A stretch of DNA of 38,518 nt, taken from the IMG/VR virus record IMGVR_UViG_2671181134_000015. One strand, 5' to 3'. Below the pieces are notes generated by a model that saw nothing but the letters and a program-made list of their open reading frames with translations, ran no database searches and was not told where the DNA came from. The DNA is from a virus. Its lineage: Duplodnaviria; Heunggongvirae; Uroviricota; Caudoviricetes. Of this stretch, positions 2,625-37,092 are shown piece by piece; position 1 is the first letter of the stretch, and every line of letters starts with the position of its first letter. Both the position numbers and the translations under genes were made by a program.

Positions 2625-3749
2625 CTAACCATTGCTTTCCTTTTCGGCTATCCACTCGGGTATTCTTGCCTCCAGTTCAAGCCTTGTGGTGAAGCCGCTT
2701 CCGTCGATATTGTGTTCCACTTTTGCAATGAGCCAGTCCTGATTGTCTATCTCGGTTTTAAAGCCGGTTACCGTGCCATGCATTTCAGGGTAAAGCTCCG
2801 CTCTGCCCCGGGCCAGCGTGATGGAGAATTCAGCCGCACCGCGCTGTAATTGCTGCCACCTGGCGGCAGCTGCGCGCTGTGCAGCAATTTCATTTGGGTA
2901 GGTTTTTCTCAGAACGAACACGTTACCTTCTGCCCCCTCCATGTAGCTGCCTTCCCGGCTGCTGCTCTTTTCAGCGTGAGTTTTTCGTTTTTTTATGTTG
3001 ACGGCTTTCTTTTTGCCATGATTCAAATCCAGCCAGTACGCCTTCACCCCTGTGTATGCCTGGCGATCGGCTATTCTGAACTGGTGACTGTCTCCGTCAC
3101 TGCGTGCCAGTGCAAATGAGGGGAGTGGGCGCCCGTCAGCTGTCACGCCGCCACCCGGCAGAATGAACAGCAGACAGCCATTTTTGACGGTAGTGATGGC
3201 TCCCAGCATATCAGCCATGCGGGTAAGGAATGATATGTCGCTTTCTTCCGTCTGGTCGGCATGATCGATTTCAATATCCATAAGCATATCGCTTATCTGG
3301 GCTTTCAGTCCGTAACGGTGGGCAATAGCGGAAACCACGCGTTCAACAGTCACGTCGTGCCAGGATACTTCCCGTTTGACGTTAAATTCCTCCCTGAAGT
3401 CTGCGCTGTTTGCACTCAGTGTCAGCCGCTCCGGAGGTCCTTCATGAGCGACCTCATCAACAATGTAGGTGCCTTTATCAACCAGAGGTTCTCCCTTCCA
3501 TCCCAGCATGACTCTGATGTGTGTTCCCCGCCCGGGGAGAGCCAGCTGCCCGTCGGCATCATCCAGCACAAGAGTGACCCTGTCTGCTTCAAACCCCCGG
3601 TTGTCTGTCATGGAAAGCGATATCACCCGGTTATTCAGTTCCTGAAGAGTGTTTTTATCCTGCTCCCTGTCCAGTGAAACGCTGAAATCAGGCATTTTCA
3701 CCAGTTCTTTCAGGGGGGAATAAACCGTGTTACCGTTCAGCAATACCAT
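2625..3749 (-). CDS. P2 gpD-like tail protein (late control gene D)
   Basis: Motifs TDNRGFEAD, EVSWHD and FSITLARGRA as recalled for P2 gpD; start set at MVLLNGN (3749) with GGAGGA RBS; the 491-aa ORF in the track over-extends into the intergenic region. Confidence 0.8.
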   Translation of the reverse strand: MVLLNGNTVYSPLKELVKMPDFSVSLDREQDKNTLQELNNRVISLSMTDNRGFEADRVTLVLDDADGQLALPGRGTHIRVMLGWKGEPLVDKGTYIVDEVAHEGPPERLTLSANSADFREEFNVKREVSWHDVTVERVVSAIAHRYGLKAQISDMLMDIEIDHADQTEESDISFLTRMADMLGAITTVKNGCLLFILPGGGVTADGRPLPSFALARSDGDSHQFRIADRQAYTGVKAYWLDLNHGKKKAVNIKKRKTHAEKSSSREGSYMEGAEGNVFVLRKTYPNEIAAQRAAAARWQQLQRGAAEFSITLARGRAELYPEMHGTVTGFKTEIDNQDWLIAKVEHNIDGSGFTTRLELEARIPEWIAEKESNG

Positions 3750-3903
3750 AATTCCTCCGTTTTTCCCGCCACAGTTGCATACCAGAAACACCACCGGAAT
3801 GAGTTTGGGTTGTATGTGTATTGCGAGAAACCGCAGTTCGTGAAAAAGCTCCCCGTGTTCGTAAAGATCTCTGCTGAACTCACACGAATGCAGGGTGAAT
3901 AAT

Positions 3904-5091
3904 ATGGCTGAAACCCGTTTCCATGGCGTGCGGGTCCGGGAGAATGCGGATCTGGTCACGGCCATTAATGATATTGACTCCAGTGTGATTGGTATCGTGG
4001 CTGTTGCTGATGATGCTGATGCAAAAACATTTCCGCTGGATAAGCCGGTGCTCCTGACGCGTGTCATGGATGTGCTGGGTAAGGCCGGAAAAACCGGCAC
4101 GCTGTATAAAAGTCTGAAAGCTATTGCCGATCAGGTCAGCACCAGAGTTGTTGTGGTGCGGGTTGCTGCTGCGAAGGAGGGGGATGGTCAGCCGACACAA
4201 ACGCAGCTTGTTATTGGTGAGGTCAAAAATGACGGAACCTATACAGGCATGCAGGCGCTCCTGGTGGCTGAACAGAATGAGGCTGTTGGTGTTCGTCCCA
4301 GGATCCTGGCCGTGCCATCGCTTGACACCAAAGAGGTGGTGGCGGCACTGGTAACCGTCGCGAAAAAGCTGCGTGCCTTTGTGTATGCGGGCTGTCCCGG
4401 CTGTAATACCGTGCAGGAGGCTGTCACCTGGCGCGCCGATCTTGCTCACCGTGAAGTTATGCTGATCTGGCCTGATTTTATCGCGTACAACCCTAACAGT
4501 GGCCAGAATGAGGCTTTTCCTGCATCTGCGTATGCGTGCGGGTTGCGTGCGAAGATTGACCACGAGCAGGGCTGGCATAAATCCCTGTCCAATGTGGCAG
4601 TGAATAATGTCCTGGGTATTTCTGTGCCGGTGTTCTGGTCGCTCCAGGCAGAGGACAGTGACGCGGAAACCCTCAATGACAAGGAGATCACCACACTCAT
4701 TAAACGTAACGGCTTCCGTTTCTGGGGTAACCGGACTCTCGACACCACTACCTACACCTTTGAGACCTACACGCGTACGGCGCAGTCGCTGGCGGATACC
4801 ATCGCCGAATCGCAGTTTGAAACCGTGGACAAGCCGCTGACGCCGTCGAACGTGAAGGATGTGTTAAGCGATATCCGGGCAAAACTGAGTGCCTTTGTGA
4901 CAGCGGGTAAACTTATCGGGGCAGAGTGCTGGTATGACGTGGTGGATAACGGCACAACGGATCTGCGTCAGGGGGTTGTGCGCATTCGCTACAAGTATAC
5001 GCCGGTGCCACCGCTTGAAGATCTTGAGCTTCACCAGACGTTTACCGATGAATTCTTTGCGGGTGCATTTGCATCACTGGGAGGTGAGTAA
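3904..5091 (+). CDS. Contractile tail sheath protein (P2 gpFI-like)
   Basis: TFPLDKPVLLTRV, QGWHKSLSNV, GFRFWGNRT and YTPVPPLE match recalled P2 FI; start at MAETRF. Confidence 0.9.
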   Translation: MAETRFHGVRVRENADLVTAINDIDSSVIGIVAVADDADAKTFPLDKPVLLTRVMDVLGKAGKTGTLYKSLKAIADQVSTRVVVVRVAAAKEGDGQPTQTQLVIGEVKNDGTYTGMQALLVAEQNEAVGVRPRILAVPSLDTKEVVAALVTVAKKLRAFVYAGCPGCNTVQEAVTWRADLAHREVMLIWPDFIAYNPNSGQNEAFPASAYACGLRAKIDHEQGWHKSLSNVAVNNVLGISVPVFWSLQAEDSDAETLNDKEITTLIKRNGFRFWGNRTLDTTTYTFETYTRTAQSLADTIAESQFETVDKPLTPSNVKDVLSDIRAKLSAFVTAGKLIGAECWYDVVDNGTTDLRQGVVRIRYKYTPVPPLEDLELHQTFTDEFFAGAFASLGGE

Positions 5092-27978: not shown

Positions 27979-28383
27979 TTACCTGCGTGATTGCCTGCTG
28001 GCGGCCGAATGCACATAGCGGACAATTGCCGCTTTTCGGTTAACGACGGCCAGCGTTCTTGCCAGTTCTTCGTTGAGTTTTCTGGTCTGTTTTTCGTGGT
28101 ATGCCTGCATGATTTTTCCTACGGGAGTCAGTGGTTCAGGCTCTGATATGGCGCGACGAGGGCGCACGGCAACGATGAATGCGCTTCTGTCGGTGTTGAT
28201 TCTTGCAGTCAGGATGTCGGTCATAACGGTGTCTGTGCTGCGATCGGGACTGGCGATCGTGATTTCCAGTTCGTCGCCTGGCTGCGGTCGAACACTGACG
28301 CCGCTCAGTGTCAGTGCCGGAATGCGTGCGTTCATGATGGTGCTGAAATCATGGCGCTGGAGTACGCAATGGAATCGTGTCAT
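27979..28383 (-). CDS. Hypothetical protein downstream of the replication gene
   Basis: 134-aa ORF overlapping the A stop. Confidence 0.45.
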   Translation of the reverse strand: MTRFHCVLQRHDFSTIMNARIPALTLSGVSVRPQPGDELEITIASPDRSTDTVMTDILTARINTDRSAFIVAVRPRRAISEPEPLTPVGKIMQAYHEKQTRKLNEELARTLAVVNRKAAIVRYVHSAASRQSRR

Positions 28384-30893
28384 GGGTTAACCTCCGGTTG
28401 ATCTGCTGCCACCAGGCTTCGTGATTTTTCATCCCAGTGCACAATCCGCCCGTCAGGCAGGCGAACGCGTGCACCTCTGTGTACGGAAAGTGCTGCGCCA
28501 CTGTGTAGCTCCTCGCCCGTCGTGCTCAGTGCCGACTTGATTACGGTGGTGGTGACGTCAGTCAGCGGCAATGCTGTACGCACATGTATGACGTCATCGG
28601 GCGTGGTGGGGCCGCCGGTTTTCACGGTTTTTGTGTCAGATGGCGCATCTTTCAGCTGCCTGGTGAGTTGTTTTCTCTCTGTGGGGGTCAGTGACCTTAA
28701 CCATTCGCTCAAATCACCTTCCGGGATGGTCAGTTTTTGTTCTTTCCTGGTTTCCGGTGGTGGGGTTTTACCCTCTCCGGTGTCTGTTTTTTCATCATGG
28801 GGACAGTTATTGCCACGAGTCCAAGGTGCGGCAAAGCCGCACTCAACGTCAAAACCCTCGTCCGTGCTGTTGTCGGCTTTCGCTTCTTTTCTGACCAGTT
28901 TCCACTCGTCCGGATGGGTACAGATGGTGTAGCGCTCGCCGAGCGACGGGGCGCAAATTCCGTAGATGCGCTGCGGGAATTCGCCGTAGTCGTTGGCCTC
29001 ATCTGCGGTTTCGTATGCGGTGCGGACCAGGTACGCGTTGCGGGGAATGAGCACGCCACCCTGGCGGGTGATGTAGGTGGCAAAACACCCCACGTCAGCA
29101 GCGGCCAGAATGGCGTCAATGTCGTCATGATCCAGGCGCTTCGGTGATGCCGGGTTGCGCTCCATCTGTCCGGCAAGGCGGCGGAGTTCACGCCACACCT
29201 GGCGGGGCGGGATGCCGAAGAACTGGAACTGACGGATGCGATGGAGACTCGCCCAGGCAATGGCGTTTTCCACGGTTTCGGCCATGGTTTTCCCTGATTC
29301 CTCATCGGCGTAAGGTTTGCCGGTTTTCGGGTCATTGTCGTGAAAGGCGCTGGCGTCCAGGTTCTTGCCGATATAGGTTGCGATGTAACTTGCCGGTGTG
29401 CCTTTTGCCGGGTCGATTTTTTCGCACTTGAAGCGCGGCGAAATATCATCCCCCAGTTCTGCGCGATCTGATTTGACTGCCGCGTCACGCATGATTGCAA
29501 TGATGCGTTCTTCATTGTCCGGGGAGGTGAATACCAGCATGTGCCAGTGCGGTGTGCCGTCATGGTGTGGCTCAACGGTGCGCACCCCGTACCAGCTCAG
29601 GCCTTCTTTGTTGAGTTTTTTTCTTACAGCTGCAAAGACGTCGTACACCAGATAATCGCTGGCATCGCGCACGGTGGCACCGTTGTATTTCGGGTTCAGG
29701 CTGCCGTCCTCGTTTACGCTGTGAAAGCGGGAAGGGCAGGTCACTGTCACGAAGAACGCGGAGTCACCACGCGATTCGGCGACCTGTTCCATCCCTCTGA
29801 CGCAGGCCATCATCTCGTTGCGGCGGTTGCGCGGATTCCCCAGCCCTGACCAGTACACGTCCTCCAGACTCAGGCGTTCACCGTCTTCGTTTTCAATGTC
29901 CCAGCTTTTGAGAAAATCACGGGTGCGTTGGCGTTTCTCCCGGAATTCCTGGAGTGACTCATGGCTGATGTAGGGGGATGCCCTGCGCGATACTCTTCCG
30001 GCGGCACGCAGTAATTCCTCCCGCCAGAGATCGGCGAGGTGGCGCAGCTGGTTGTTCCACCAGGTGGCGCAGGTGATGCGCATTACTGCACCCGGTACCC
30101 GTTCAGGGTCTGGTGCCGTGCGGCGGTCACGTCTGAGCTCGAGTGACGGCCAGCATGGTGGGGTCACGCCCAGTTTTAACGCCATGCGCGCCAGCTGCTG
30201 GTAAGTCAGCAACCAGGTAAACAGGTTATCGTCGCCTTTTCCTGTCCGCTCAGTAACTTCATCACATATGCGTTCCAGTTCGGTGGAAAATGCCGCCGCT
30301 GTTAGTGTGGCAAGGCGCTGAATTTGATCACGGTTGAGTTGTGGCAGCATGAGTAATTCATCAAGGCGATGGCGTGCTGCGGTGGCTTTGAATGCCGTCG
30401 TGGCGAAGCATTCATTCACCTGTTCGATGCGTTTCAGGCGTGTGCGCAGTCCACGGCGAACAAAGTTATCAGCCACGTGTGTATTGTTGTTTTTCACGCC
30501 TTCATGGCGGGCGCTTTGCTGTTTGCGGTTTAAACGCGCCAGATCACGAATGAGCGCGTTGCCAAGAAACGAGGGCAGGGCGCGAAGTTCTGCCATGGCT
30601 TCCGATACCACTGTGGGCGGATTTTCGCGTTTGTGTCTCGCCAGTTTTTCCAGTCTGATCCGGCGCTCTTCGTCGTGGTGAAGATGCGAATTAATTCGCT
30701 TGCCTTCGTCTGTGTTTGTCAGGAAGTCGACGGTCTCTTCATCCAGTCTTGCATCAATGCGAATGTCTTCGTTGATGTAGCTCTGAATGGCCTGGCGTAA
30801 TGCGGTTGGTTGCGCTCTGCCGAACGTTTCAGGATCGATAACCGGTAGCGGGGCGTTCCACGGGTACGCCAGTTGTGCGTTATGGTCGCTCAT
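28380..30893 (-). CDS. Replication initiation endonuclease gpA-like (rolling-circle HUH family)
   Basis: 837 aa; GTPHWHMLVF HUH-type motif; ATGA overlap with the upstream gene. Confidence 0.85.
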   Translation of the reverse strand: MSDHNAQLAYPWNAPLPVIDPETFGRAQPTALRQAIQSYINEDIRIDARLDEETVDFLTNTDEGKRINSHLHHDEERRIRLEKLARHKRENPPTVVSEAMAELRALPSFLGNALIRDLARLNRKQQSARHEGVKNNNTHVADNFVRRGLRTRLKRIEQVNECFATTAFKATAARHRLDELLMLPQLNRDQIQRLATLTAAAFSTELERICDEVTERTGKGDDNLFTWLLTYQQLARMALKLGVTPPCWPSLELRRDRRTAPDPERVPGAVMRITCATWWNNQLRHLADLWREELLRAAGRVSRRASPYISHESLQEFREKRQRTRDFLKSWDIENEDGERLSLEDVYWSGLGNPRNRRNEMMACVRGMEQVAESRGDSAFFVTVTCPSRFHSVNEDGSLNPKYNGATVRDASDYLVYDVFAAVRKKLNKEGLSWYGVRTVEPHHDGTPHWHMLVFTSPDNEERIIAIMRDAAVKSDRAELGDDISPRFKCEKIDPAKGTPASYIATYIGKNLDASAFHDNDPKTGKPYADEESGKTMAETVENAIAWASLHRIRQFQFFGIPPRQVWRELRRLAGQMERNPASPKRLDHDDIDAILAAADVGCFATYITRQGGVLIPRNAYLVRTAYETADEANDYGEFPQRIYGICAPSLGERYTICTHPDEWKLVRKEAKADNSTDEGFDVECGFAAPWTRGNNCPHDEKTDTGEGKTPPPETRKEQKLTIPEGDLSEWLRSLTPTERKQLTRQLKDAPSDTKTVKTGGPTTPDDVIHVRTALPLTDVTTTVIKSALSTTGEELHSGAALSVHRGARVRLPDGRIVHWDEKSRSLVAADQPEVNP

Positions 30894-31306
30894 GCGTCGC
30901 ACTCCCCGGCAGTCGCCGCCTGAAACGCCGCGCGGTACAGCATGAGAAGGCGCTGGTATTCGCCGATAAAACCTTCTGCGGTGTATATACCTTTCACGGC
31001 CACGCTGTGGTTTGTCATTTCCAGAACCAGCGCCATCTCTGATGACGACCAGCTGATGGTGGTGCTGTCGGTGCCGTTGATGTGAAATAAACCCAGTCCA
31101 TCACCATCACCTTTCACGTCCACGCGGTAACGACCGTCAACGGTGAAGGAGAAATCCCCGGATGTGGTGATGCTGCGGGCAGCCTGTTTACAGGCGCGGC
31201 GGTAATAGTCGTGCCAGTCGTTCAGGCGGGAAGCCAGCCGGGGATCCACTGCCCACATCCAGTTAAAAAAATCCTGAATATCTGAAAGTCCCTTAACGCT
31301 CTTCAT
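30890..31306 (-). CDS. Hypothetical protein immediately upstream of gpA
   Basis: 138-aa ORF translationally coupled to A. Confidence 0.45.
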   Translation of the reverse strand: MKSVKGLSDIQDFFNWMWAVDPRLASRLNDWHDYYRRACKQAARSITTSGDFSFTVDGRYRVDVKGDGDGLGLFHINGTDSTTISWSSSEMALVLEMTNHSVAVKGIYTAEGFIGEYQRLLMLYRAAFQAATAGECDA

Positions 31307-31374
31307 GAGAACCTCCGGTAACAGATGTGCGGAAGCCTCCCGCGTACGGGTGCGGGATGGCTTCAGGATGTTGT

Positions 31375-31602
31375 TTAGTGGTGGTGTTGCTGGTTGATAA
31401 GGTCCTGCAGCTCCGCGAGATCATCCGCCAGGTAGCTGAAAACAGCGGCACAGTAACGGTTTGACAGAGCGTGAGTGCGCTCATGCAGCATGTTGATATG
31501 CATGATTTGCGCGACGCGTGTTGCGCGGAAAAGTCTGCGGTTGATTTCAGTCTGGATGTGACGACGCTCAGCGCGGGCGCGCTGTTGCTTGCGGTTTGCC
31601 AT
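31375..31602 (-). CDS. Hypothetical small basic protein (75 aa)
   Basis: MANRKQQRARAERRH... arginine-rich N-terminus. Confidence 0.4.
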   Translation of the reverse strand: MANRKQQRARAERRHIQTEINRRLFRATRVAQIMHINMLHERTHALSNRYCAAVFSYLADDLAELQDLINQQHHH

Positions 31603-31985
31603 GGTGTGGCCTCTTCGTTTGTGAATTTTGAAAACTCACCAACCAGAGGTTCCAAGCTCAGGGTGGCGAGACGTACAGGGTTGGAACTACCGGCAAACGA
31701 AGAAACCGGCCCGACCGAAGTCGGCCCTGTACGCCCCGCCATAATTCTGATGCGAAAAAGACGTGGCGATACAGTACGCACAAAAAAACCGCTGGCGCGG
31801 CTGTGCGCTTCGTTTGTCAGCGGGGTTCCAATCCCGGCACCCGTTTTATGAGGTGCAGCGGAAATGTAACCCGACACGACGAGCGCTGGCAAGCGGTTTT
31901 TGTGTTGCGTGCTGATGTGGTTAGAATGTGGCGAATTAATATCACCTGGCAACTGGTGATTGTCTGCATACGCGGGGTGTTTCTG

Positions 31986-32450
31986 ATGAGTGATAAGCTC
32001 CCTTCTGATTACGACATTCTTTTTGACCTGTGGTACAGCTACTGGCTTGAACGTATTACATGTGTGTTTCACCGACGCGTTTCTGCTGCTCTGCGAATCA
32101 GCGCCTTTCTGGTTGGTGTTGCGGCGTTTGTCCTGTGTGATTTTGTTGTGTTGGTACTCTTCAGTGTGGTTCTGTTTCTGCTCTGGCAGTGCATGGCTGC
32201 CAGTTTTGAACGCAGGGCTGAAAAGGCTGAATGGCAGACAGTCAGTTACCAGCGCCTTATCAGTCAGCGCCATGTGATTAGTAAGGAATGCATGATTGCG
32301 CGCCTCTCCTTTGTTGAGGAAAGTGACAGTCCCATCATGGAGTGCATGATTAATCTTGCCTGGAATAAAGCCTGTGAGGCGGTTGGCAGCTCTTCGCGCA
32401 ATCATGTTTCGTTCTCCGGTCGGTTACTCAGTCGCCTGTGCGGCTTCTGA
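31986..32450 (+). CDS. Putative membrane protein (about 154 aa) on the strand opposite the early operon; start uncertain
   Basis: Hydrophobic stretch ALRISAFLVGVAAFVLCDFVVLVLFSVVLFLLW; the antisense 370-aa ORF is low-complexity; overlaps the DUF4406-like gene 3' end by 27 nt. Confidence 0.3.
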   Translation: MSDKLPSDYDILFDLWYSYWLERITCVFHRRVSAALRISAFLVGVAAFVLCDFVVLVLFSVVLFLLWQCMAASFERRAEKAEWQTVSYQRLISQRHVISKECMIARLSFVEESDSPIMECMINLAWNKACEAVGSSSRNHVSFSGRLLSRLCGF

Positions 32451-32774
32451 CTGGCGAAGCAGCTGGGTGATGCTTTCACCGGCTGCCCTGTTTTCCGGGA
32501 ATGACACCGGCATGTTCAGCTTGCGTGCCATTGCGTACTCTGCCCGTGCGCCAGCTGACTCCGTCCAGCCTTCCAGTAAGTAAATGGCATCGGCACACAT
32601 GAGCATCGAAATACAAATGCTCATGTACTGCTGCTGGCTTAGTCCGTCCGGCAGTATGGCAGGGTTGAGTGCGGTGTATCCGGCTGACTTAAGCTTCATC
32701 GCCGCCATGGAAAACGCCGTTCTGTTGTGGTCTTTGTATCCGGTCATGGGACCGGCGATATAAATCACTGCCAT
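32424..32774 (-). CDS. DUF4406-like protein (nucleoside 2-deoxyribosyltransferase-like fold)
   Basis: N-terminal IYIAGPMTG signature. Confidence 0.55.
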   Translation of the reverse strand: MAVIYIAGPMTGYKDHNRTAFSMAAMKLKSAGYTALNPAILPDGLSQQQYMSICISMLMCADAIYLLEGWTESAGARAEYAMARKLNMPVSFPENRAAGESITQLLRQSEAAQATE

Positions 32775-32983
32775 GCTGTACCTCCCGTGTTGCGTGTTGC
32801 TGTCAGCACGCGTACTTCTTCCATGTTCGTGGCGCAGAAGTGCGAGCCGTTGATAAGGCGGATGTGATGCATCTCAGGATTGCGTGAGTCCTGGCGTGTC
32901 ATACCCGGGTCAATCAGGCTTTCGTCGACTTCGTACTGACGGCCGTTGGCTGTGAACCGGATAACGGTTGATTCCTGGATCAT
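32765..32983 (-). CDS. Hypothetical small protein (72 aa)
   Basis: ORF with start-stop overlap to neighbours. Confidence 0.4.
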   Translation of the reverse strand: MIQESTVIRFTANGRQYEVDESLIDPGMTRQDSRNPEMHHIRLINGSHFCATNMEEVRVLTATRNTGGTAWQ

Positions 32984-36485: not shown

Positions 36486-37010
36486 TCACTGGTTGCCTTC
36501 GCTGTATTGGTGTTGCTCCAGTTTTGACTTTCTTCCTGTGTAAACCCGCTTTCCATTGATGGTCTGGCAGTCTTCTTTGTTTGCCGGGGAAAACTTTCTT
36601 TTCTGTCGGTCGTACGTCCAGTAGCTTTTCCAGTTGTGCCATTCTGGCGGCTCGCATTCTGGTAGTTCGTCAGCCAGCTTGTCCCACTCTCTGGCGTTAA
36701 ACCACCATACGCCATCCGAATTTTCATCTTCAGGGTTTGAACGGGTCTTGTGTCCAGGCATCTGATTTCGCTGAAGCGCCACGCGCAATGCAGCTTTTGT
36801 CAACCCGATATAGGCTGCCCCTTTTTCAAGTGAGCAAAGTCCGGCTACCGGGCCATCCAGTCGCAAGGTTGCCCCTTTTTTGTAGGTGCGTTTTTTCTTT
36901 TCCTCTTGGTGTTCATCGTCGTTTTCCGCACCAACGGATTCGGTGATGCTGTCGTTTTCCTGAAGGGCTTGTGTGTCAGATAACTCTTTATCGGCAATTG
37001 ACTTCCGCAT
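36486..37010 (-). CDS. Cox/Apl-like excisionase-regulator candidate (first gene of the early operon; N-terminal extent uncertain)
   Basis: Divergent from the repressor gene; HTH-like YIGLTKAALRVALQRNQMPGHKT and W-rich block DGVWWFNAREWDKL resemble P2 Cox; the acidic N-terminal 50 aa may not be translated. Confidence 0.45.
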   Translation of the reverse strand: MRKSIADKELSDTQALQENDSITESVGAENDDEHQEEKKKRTYKKGATLRLDGPVAGLCSLEKGAAYIGLTKAALRVALQRNQMPGHKTRSNPEDENSDGVWWFNAREWDKLADELPECEPPEWHNWKSYWTYDRQKRKFSPANKEDCQTINGKRVYTGRKSKLEQHQYSEGNQ

Positions 37011-37072
37011 TTGCTATCCTCTTGCGTTGGTGCGCTTGTCGCGCATCATGAAGGTTTGTTTAGGTTTATAAA

Positions 37073-37092
37073 AGATACTCGTGCGAGTATCT
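37073..37092. promoter_or_regulatory. Perfect 9-bp inverted repeat AGATACTCG-TG-CGAGTATCT in the cox/C divergent region; candidate operator
   Basis: Lies between the divergent starts at 37010 and 37115; a second palindrome TGCGC-N5-GCGCA is at 37031-37045 and TATAAA at 37067-37072. Confidence 0.4.

Follow-up and report, generated by a model that had tools for sequence, protein, structure and literature searches.

What occupies the gap between positions 31603 and 31985 in the early operon of an Escherichia coli prophage, and is the open reading frame (ORF) that runs against the operon beside it a real gene? The prophage is the IMG/VR virus record IMGVR_UViG_2671181134_000015, and its whole stretch of 38,518 nucleotides (nt) is called the window throughout. 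It belongs to the P2 family, is P88-like, and carries its early operon on the minus strand. A preliminary description had treated the gap as structured and non-coding and had placed its signals on the plus strand. Here we surveyed the gap and its surroundings, and in our reading, which we consider likely, the region is an RNA immunity cassette of the P4/P1 type in the early operon of a P88-like (P2-family) prophage, together with one opposite-strand cargo gene. It consists of known RNA families in a known regulatory architecture and is not a new kind of element.

RNA genes of the gap

At the curated Rfam thresholds exactly two features were found in the window, both of them in the gap and both on the minus strand, with E-values of 6e-13 and 9e-16 over the whole window. 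They are an isrK RNA, which corresponds to seqA of phage P4, and a C4 antisense RNA, which corresponds to CI of P4 (Table 1). That the gap lacks a conventional minus-strand protein gene was borne out, and it is structured as supposed, the read-through RNA from 31856 to 31590 (267 nt) folding with z = -4.6 against 200 shuffles. A covariance-model scan, which the preliminary description had named as a check, was the right test and found both RNAs. Its structured elements are not plus-strand features as described but minus-strand RNA genes of the known families isrK/seqA and C4/CI, on the strand of the early operon. The hairpin reported near 31780-31815 is real, but it is the intrinsic terminator of isrK, again on the minus strand.

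The isrK/C4 transcript is preceded by a sigma-70-like promoter site, whose -10 element ends 7 nt before the first base of the isrK model, with a predicted start near 31856. Only 2 promoter-like sites were found in 31300-32800, that of isrK among them, where shuffles expect 0.8, and the isrK site is kept in phage P88 and in all other relatives. Compensatory changes are also seen in relatives in hairpin 1 of C4 (CCGAC/GUCGG versus CCAGC/GCUGG). A permissive Rfam scan of 31300-32500 added only one sub-threshold c4-a1b1 match, which overlaps isrK. The tRNA/tmRNA scan of the window found none, and a tRNA-like sequence, GGTTCCAATCCC, was rejected as part of a tRNA, the scan being empty and the sequence being the loop of isrK hairpin 2.

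The RefSeq annotation of a 99% identical genome records no RNA gene in the gap. In phage P88 (L002, 5277-5465) and in locus L009 (1864-2052) a 62-residue plus-strand 'hypothetical protein' is placed directly over C4 and isrK by the deposited and RefSeq annotations; we regard it as almost certainly a false call on the strand opposite the RNA genes.

Base pairing and co-variation

The C4 RNA carries two recognition segments, a' in the loop of its hairpin 2 and b' in the single-stranded junction after it, and each of them is complementary to two sites, the target mimics a1 and b1 in isrK and the targets a2 and b2 in the leader of the derepression gene. In the window the complementarity is exact within both sets. 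Site a2 includes the Shine-Dalgarno AAGAGG (31615..31610), which lies 7 nt before the AUG at 31602, and in the minimum-free-energy fold of the read-through RNA the a1b1 sites are paired with a'b' in cis.

About 90 related loci were gathered, 59 unique modules were typed and 50 distinct modules were aligned for co-variation; a scan of genome contigs gave only 3 loci. Among the typed modules the a' loop has 16 versions and b' has 6, which occur in 25 combinations, each matched by its own a1/a2 or b1/b2. In the aligned modules 99.4% of the a1b1:a'b' cells are paired and 11 of 16 pairs show compensatory changes; for a'b':a2b2 the figures are 98.0% of 800 cells and 10 of 16 pairs. The covariation scores were 0.70 for the former and 0.69 for the latter, against 0.13 after shuffling and at most 0.24 when the partners were slid by 1-3 columns. 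The cognate duplexes average 9, 10.8, 7.3 and 7.4 nt, and non-cognate ones reach 4-6 nt. Because the sites co-vary with compensatory changes across modules, the alignments strongly support a functional three-way pairing whose specificity has diversified.

At L012 (NZ_CP075697, 1576-3474) the whole module is tandemly duplicated, the order being derepression gene, C4, isrK and a truncated plus ORF, followed by a second full copy, and the a/b types differ between the copies. The module of L021 (224-490) is chimeric, with a1/b1 of isrK of one type and C4 with a2/b2 of another, and its cognate duplexes are only 5 and 4 nt long; it is a natural recombinant whose isrK should no longer pair with its own C4.

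Derepression gene and the long open frame

The protein of the derepression gene, 75 amino acids (aa) long, scores 30.8 bits against Pfam PF25738 (cut-off 27) and shares 30% identity with P4 epsilon across 50 aa (E 5e-8). P4 epsilon is the founding member of that family and scores 170 bits. The proteins downstream of C4 matched PF25738 or nothing in Pfam. Variable sites in the derepression gene are distributed over the three codon positions as 18:19:40. The 138-aa ORF which follows was considered as a homologue of P4 orf151 and rejected, no similarity being found. In this phage the 138-aa gene, and then replication gene A, come directly after the cassette.

A minus-strand frame of 370 codons crosses the whole region. 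The preliminary description had rightly reported it as open and had then rejected it, but it merits attention: the frame corresponds to P4 eta (Ash family) and is open in relatives, at 372-374 codons down to 87% identity. It begins at the ATG at 32405 (GGAG-N8-ATG), 19 nt after the stop of the DUF4406 gene, with which it shares one reading frame. It then runs antisense through the plus ORF, passes the promoter, isrK and C4, continues out of frame through the derepression gene, and ends 14 nt inside the next gene (ATG 31306). Over the module part no stop is found in 59 of 61 unique modules, and stops occur 190 times (12 columns) and 111 times (14 columns) in the other two frames, against 2 in the eta-like frame. 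The ATG of the next gene overlaps the eta-like stop in all 70 unique loci, as ATGA in 48 and with an 11-nt offset in 22, including the window, and in 64 of the 70 an ATG lies 3-12 codons into the open stretch. The equivalent frame of P88 (206 aa) passes the Phage_ASH (PF10554) cut-off of 26 with 27.1 bits, and P4 eta scores 82.2 bits; the frame of the window also matches PHROGs annotated 'transcriptional regulator'.

The variable sites of the eta-like frame fall on its codon positions as 51:20:30 where it overlaps the plus ORF and as 19:40:18 where it overlaps the derepression gene, and its translation is polar and of low complexity. Since the variation falls on first or second codon positions, its amino-acid sequence is taken as not being under selection, and the pattern fits a frame in which translation matters in itself and not as the source of a functional protein. 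The frame is probably translated from early-operon transcripts, with the RNAs still the main products of the region. Its translation had been named as the result that would refute a non-coding gap, which is a false choice, since in P4 the RNAs lie inside the translated ORF eta. Synonymous resampling across the plus ORF of the window gives P ~0.004 for the open antisense frame, and this is only suggestive of a plus ORF that keeps its antisense frame open for the eta-like ORF.

Opposite-strand membrane-protein gene

The hydrophobic plus-strand ORF of the preliminary description is a real gene for a two-helix membrane protein with its own promoter-like signals, from the ATG at 31986 to the stop at 32450 (154 aa). 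It matches phrog_6315 with E 3.8e-54 (residues 6-154 on profile positions 2-149 of 152), and an exhaustive HMMER search gave 20 clusters of homologues of about 151-161 aa with conserved motifs. The variable sites by codon position are 31:21:51, third positions being the most variable, and the AlphaFold2 model consists of two helices of about 40 residues, then shorter helices (mean predicted local distance difference test score 70.6). As had been described, the ORF runs into the 3' end of the DUF4406 gene, the two sharing 27 nt (32424-32450), and the DUF4406 stop TAA (32426..32424) is the reverse complement of its codon 147, TTA.

Of the proposed plus-strand promoter the TAGAAT at 31922-31927 stands, but the TTGTGT/TAGAAT site scores 8/12, which is below the threshold of the promoter scanner. 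Locus L097, whose protein is 39% identical, occupies the same slot beside isrK and has TATAAT and a GGAGG Shine-Dalgarno at the same positions. The PGAP start in a 99% identical genome is 31926; because of the matching TATAAT and GGAGG of L097, 31986 is taken as the true start. Members of the family in Mu-like, lambdoid and other phages stand as lone opposite-strand genes within co-directional blocks, which is the layout of accessory ('moron') genes, and the plus ORF is probably an independently transcribed accessory gene of this kind, expressed in the lysogen. A membrane function in the lysogen, e.g. superinfection exclusion, is a sensible guess but only a guess. For the remote homologues of the plus ORF, PADLOC, NCBIfam and Pfam had no credible match either.

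A block of 175 nt (31878-32052), which takes in the region of the divergent promoters and codons 1-22 of the plus ORF, is nearly invariant: only 3-4 of its columns vary in relatives whose flanking sequence diverges by 5-18% on each side. On neither strand does it fold better than shuffles, and it is not conserved in the lineage at 39% protein identity; recent recombination, a sweep or overlapping constraints could be the cause. Within it is a perfect inverted repeat, ATCACC-N8-GGTGAT (31941-31960), which has no other exact copy in the window. The repeat is situated about 7-27 nt past the putative start site on the plus strand and might be an operator or a hairpin of the 5' untranslated region. 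A separate RNA or operator is not claimed at the block and the repeat, as there is no significant fold and the repeat is absent in L097.

Table 1. Positions of the features in the window; minus-strand features are given in their own direction where the first number is the larger.
Feature	Position	Strand	Details
isrK promoter-like site	31892..31863	-	-35 TTGCCA 31892..31887, 18-nt spacer, -10 TACATT 31868..31863; isrK/C4 transcript
isrK / P4 seqA-like RNA	31856..31782	-	Rfam RF01394, 69.3 bits (gathering score 50), full-length
b1 target mimic	31831..31825	-	UUGGAAC, loop of isrK hairpin 2; complementary to b'
a1 target mimic	31816..31808	-	CAAACGAAG, in isrK; complementary to a'
isrK intrinsic terminator	31802..31782	-	stem 31802..31787, then T7
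C4 / P4 CI-like antisense RNA	31746..31659	-	Rfam RF01695, 86.1 bits (gathering score 45), model 1-87/87
a' recognition segment	31702..31694	-	CUUCGUUUG, loop of C4 hairpin 2; complementary to a1 and a2
b' recognition segment	31687..31681	-	GUUCCAA, single-stranded junction after C4 hairpin 2; complementary to b1 and b2
Derepression-gene leader	31610..31655	-	holds a2 and b2
b2 target	31655..31649	-	UUGGAAC, in leader just past C4; complementary to b'
a2 target	31621..31610	-	CAAACGAAGAGG, in leader; complementary to a'
Derepression (P4 epsilon-like) gene	31602..31375	-	75 aa; Pfam PF25738, phrog_3688; predicted first gene translated from the isrK promoter
Eta-like ('Ash family') frame	32405..31293	-	370 codons, open; layout as P4 eta
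Membrane-protein gene	31986..32450	+	154 aa; phrog_6315; divergent from isrK, converges on DUF4406 gene
Plus-ORF promoter-like and ribosome-binding signals	31900..31979	+	TTGTGT 31900-31905, 16-nt spacer, TAGAAT 31922-31927, GGGG 31974-31977
DUF4406 gene	32424..32774	-	Pfam PF14359, E 7e-34; early-operon neighbour immediately upstream
138-aa gene	ATG 31306	-	next gene after the derepression gene; start overlaps eta-like stop
Replication gene A	30902..28380	-	Phage_GPA protein, 840 aa; Pfam match

Comparison with known systems

In P4 the CI and seqA RNAs lie inside eta together with a constitutive promoter, and full-length eta is translated only from an upstream promoter and coupled to the preceding gene, its translation preventing termination (PMC10111431). 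The immunity factor of P4 is the CI RNA and not a protein from the eta frame (PMC4825925; PMC10111431), and SeqA of P4-like phages is a structural homologue of IsrK (PMC4825925). The window resembles P4 in having the same two Rfam matches in the same order and strand upstream of epsilon, in an antisense RNA complementary to one upstream and one downstream site, and in an internal constitutive promoter, predicted for the window, that lies with both RNAs within a long ORF (eta/Ash family) starting upstream of it; an epsilon-family derepression gene comes next and replication genes follow further downstream. The two differ in that the host here is a complete P2-like phage whereas P4 is a satellite, in the P2-type gene A endonuclease as against the alpha primase of P4, and in the eta-like frame, which is stretched to 370 codons across an antisense gene in the window. 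The epsilon-like gene here lies out of frame inside the eta-like ORF, and in P4 it comes after eta. The downstream target here covers the Shine-Dalgarno of the epsilon-like gene itself, whereas the first translated gene of P4 is kil.

The immI system of P1 and P7 is alike in its C4-family RNA processed from the transcript that it regulates (the processing here being predicted), in duplicate targets, a1b1 and a2b2, with the downstream pair lying over the first ORF's ribosome-binding site, in anti-repressor control (here putative) as a second layer of immunity, and in a specificity set by few bases that co-vary with their targets. The heteroimmunity of P1 and P7 rests on such C4 specificity bases. 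The regulated protein here, however, belongs to the P4 epsilon family, and two further features recall P4, namely the terminator hairpin of isrK type and the eta-like ORF around the RNAs.

In the isrK-orf45-anrP region of Gifsy-1 an isrK-family RNA has a leaky terminator, the read-through mRNA yields a processed RNA of about 80 nt downstream of isrK which is complementary to IsrK, and translation of the anti-repressor is controlled post-transcriptionally, the short IsrK supplied in trans raising it about 140-fold (PMC4825925). The isrK-family RNA is shared with the window, for which a leaky terminator, a processed RNA complementary to isrK and post-transcriptional control of an anti-repressor are likewise predicted. 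Gifsy-1 differs from the window in being a lambdoid phage with another anti-repressor family, and its short orf45 ends at the anti-repressor start, whereas here the long frame passes the anti-repressor gene by and is coupled to the gene after it.

Proposed mechanism and alternatives

In the lysogen the constitutive promoter would start transcripts at about 31856, most of which, stopped by the isrK terminator, would be short isrK/seqA-like RNAs. Those that read through would carry the C4/CI-like RNA, predicted to be cut out as a stable antisense RNA of about 88 nt. Its a' and b' segments would pair with a2 and b2 in the leader, so that the Shine-Dalgarno is hidden and translation of the epsilon-like protein is blocked, and polarity, i.e. 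Rho-dependent termination in the untranslated RNA, would silence the 138-aa gene and replication gene A as well. Segments a' and b' may also pair with a1 and b1 in isrK, either as an aid to termination as in P4 or through titration of C4 by the free short RNA as in Gifsy-1. During lytic growth transcripts from the early promoter Pe would include the eta-like start codon, which lies upstream of the internal promoter; ribosomes would then cross isrK, C4 and the leader, override termination and antisense control, and be delivered to the next gene, whose start overlaps the eta-like stop.

Several points weigh against the reading as a P4/P1-type cassette with a cargo gene. Promoter activity, RNA processing and termination are drawn from the sequence and from homology to P4, P1 and Gifsy-1, as are the block on translation, polarity through Rho, a translated long frame and the roles of the two proteins. 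The P4 logic may hold only in part, because the long ORF encloses the epsilon-like gene in a different frame. The isrK-C4 part of the long frame matches Phage_ASH weakly (20.2 bits, E 8.7e-4), below the cut-off of 26, for which reason it is named eta-like and not counted as a family member, and BLASTP of the long frame against P4 eta was not significant. When the derepression gene is resampled synonymously, the overlapping frame stays open in 10% of cases, so part of the open-frame signal may be shared ancestry or inherited chance. With the codon usage of their own neighbours, diverged relatives in P2 context give P 0.15-0.17 for the open antisense frame, and openness as a trait of the plus-ORF family was rejected, members in Mu-like, lambdoid and other phages having 2-13 antisense stops. 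The plus ORF itself has no match in Pfam, NCBIfam or PADLOC (E <= 0.1) and no informative fold match.

Among the alternatives, positive control of the Gifsy-1 type is possible, though we lean away from it as the main role of the module. The read-through mRNA would be folded shut in cis, by a1b1:a'b' or by C4 and the leader, and its opening would give derepression protein and induction, the module being mainly an induction trigger. There is a precedent, as short IsrK in trans boosts anti-repressor translation in Gifsy-1, where a processed RNA of about 80 nt is also found (PMC4825925). The full-length isrK with its terminator, the cis pairing of the isrK and C4 sites in the minimum-free-energy fold and the co-variation of a1/b1 with a'/b' suit this proposal, but the identical base pairing supports repression as in P4 and P1 equally, and positive control and repression are not mutually exclusive. 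C4 also matches the Shine-Dalgarno region directly through a2, which is a repressive contact of the P1 type, and there is no counterpart here of orf45, the short ORF that in Gifsy-1 extends to the anti-repressor start. That the long minus frame encodes a functional Ash/Eta-like regulatory protein, whose amino-acid sequence is important and beside which the Rfam matches are secondary, is unlikely. The Phage_ASH and 'transcriptional regulator' PHROG matches speak for such a protein, as does a frame that almost all relatives keep open and whose start and stop are placed as in a gene, but the variation concentrates on its first or second codon positions, the variable a/b segments freely rewrite its residues while the RNA-RNA pairing is kept, and its translation is polar and of low complexity; the immunity factor of P4 is likewise an RNA (PMC4825925; PMC10111431).

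The doubt may also be turned on the plus ORF, which is an exact in-register antisense of the open minus frame and for which gene callers disagree on the start (154, 174, 215 or 263 aa), so that it could be a mere shadow of that frame. This is very improbable, as its third codon positions vary most, homologues of 22-39% identity keep a constant length of about 155 aa in Mu-like, lambdoid and other phages with the antisense frame closed, the -10 box and Shine-Dalgarno are kept in position, and its hydrophobic helices are typical of a membrane protein. Least probable of all, and hardly to be entertained, is a gap that is only a decayed remnant or recombination scar without current function, even though a conventional gene is absent and the prophage family shows strong mosaicism in this part. 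The module is intact over its full length, sequence matching the stretch, mostly its module part, is present in 1384 of 5426 complete E. coli genomes (about a quarter), isolated phages such as P88 have it too, and the interacting sites show compensatory evolution.

The cassette of the P4/P1 type, which we prefer, can be carried further into a more speculative proposal, which we put forward as tentative. In P88-like P2-family phages the P4 cassette, seqA-CI-epsilon inside eta, would be a checkpoint before gene A, diversified to an RNA 'barcode' of at least 16 x 6 specificities, and the 370-codon frame would be a ribosome bridge, translated without selection on its protein and here crossing an antisense accessory gene whose codon choice keeps the opposite frame open. 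If this is true, the RNA immunity and the helper-derepression gene of P4 share an origin with a module of helper-type phages, and the strand opposite a real gene could come under selection for 'openness only'.

On the preferred reading, a stretch recorded as empty or as 'hypothetical protein' holds a regulatory switch. The immunity/derepression apparatus of P4 would be linked by it to a homologous cassette in the P2-family phages which P4 parasitises, and this bears on the origin of P4 epsilon and of the CI RNA. The large number of co-varying specificity types suggests that P2-like prophages residing in one host are heteroimmune through RNA. Caution is also advised with the long ORF and the 62-aa plus-strand 'hypothetical protein' of related genomes, which should not be taken for ordinary protein genes.

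Genomic setting and distribution

The segment 31300-32800 matches the chromosome of E. coli JNEC-KY177 (NZ_AP045173) at 99.2% identity, within a minus-strand early operon running from a Cox-like gene through a Dam methylase and the DUF4406 gene to the replication endonuclease. The prophage is a complete element with its own C repressor, cox and structural genes. Its repressor (37115-37456) is 35% identical to P2 C (E 2e-21), and P2 C-type repressors are the class inactivated by P4 epsilon. The isolated phages of P88 type (Xuanwuvirus, Peduoviridae) have only 31387-31905 of the window in common with it, and the isrK/C4 module was not found in the early region of P2. No published description of such a cassette in a P88-like host element was found in the literature searched.

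Despite 99% identity over 31300-32800, the C repressor/cox region of the window (36486-37456) differs from that of L001 (11304-12277), the coordinates not carrying over, and because of this difference the immunity regions are taken to be swapped independently of the RNA module.

The copy at L008 (UGFC01000006, an NCTC assembly, 3386-4867) has many frameshifts, with the Phage_GPA and DUF4406 genes split and the plus ORF scrambled; it is either a decaying prophage or an error-rich assembly and was left out of the statistics. An enterobacterial P88-like module with a derepression gene 82% identical is present at L015 (NZ_JBQPOM010000071), an assembly labelled Vagococcus sp. WN89Y, and the Gram-positive label probably points to contamination or an error in labelling.

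The slot just upstream of the isrK promoter (loci L017-L096) is a variable part of the early operon and holds alternative cargo among P88-like phages. The plus ORF with DUF4406 is found there in 28 of 92 loci, a lipoprotein like gp12 of P88 in 15, and other same-strand genes, which end about 68 nt before isrK, in about 40.

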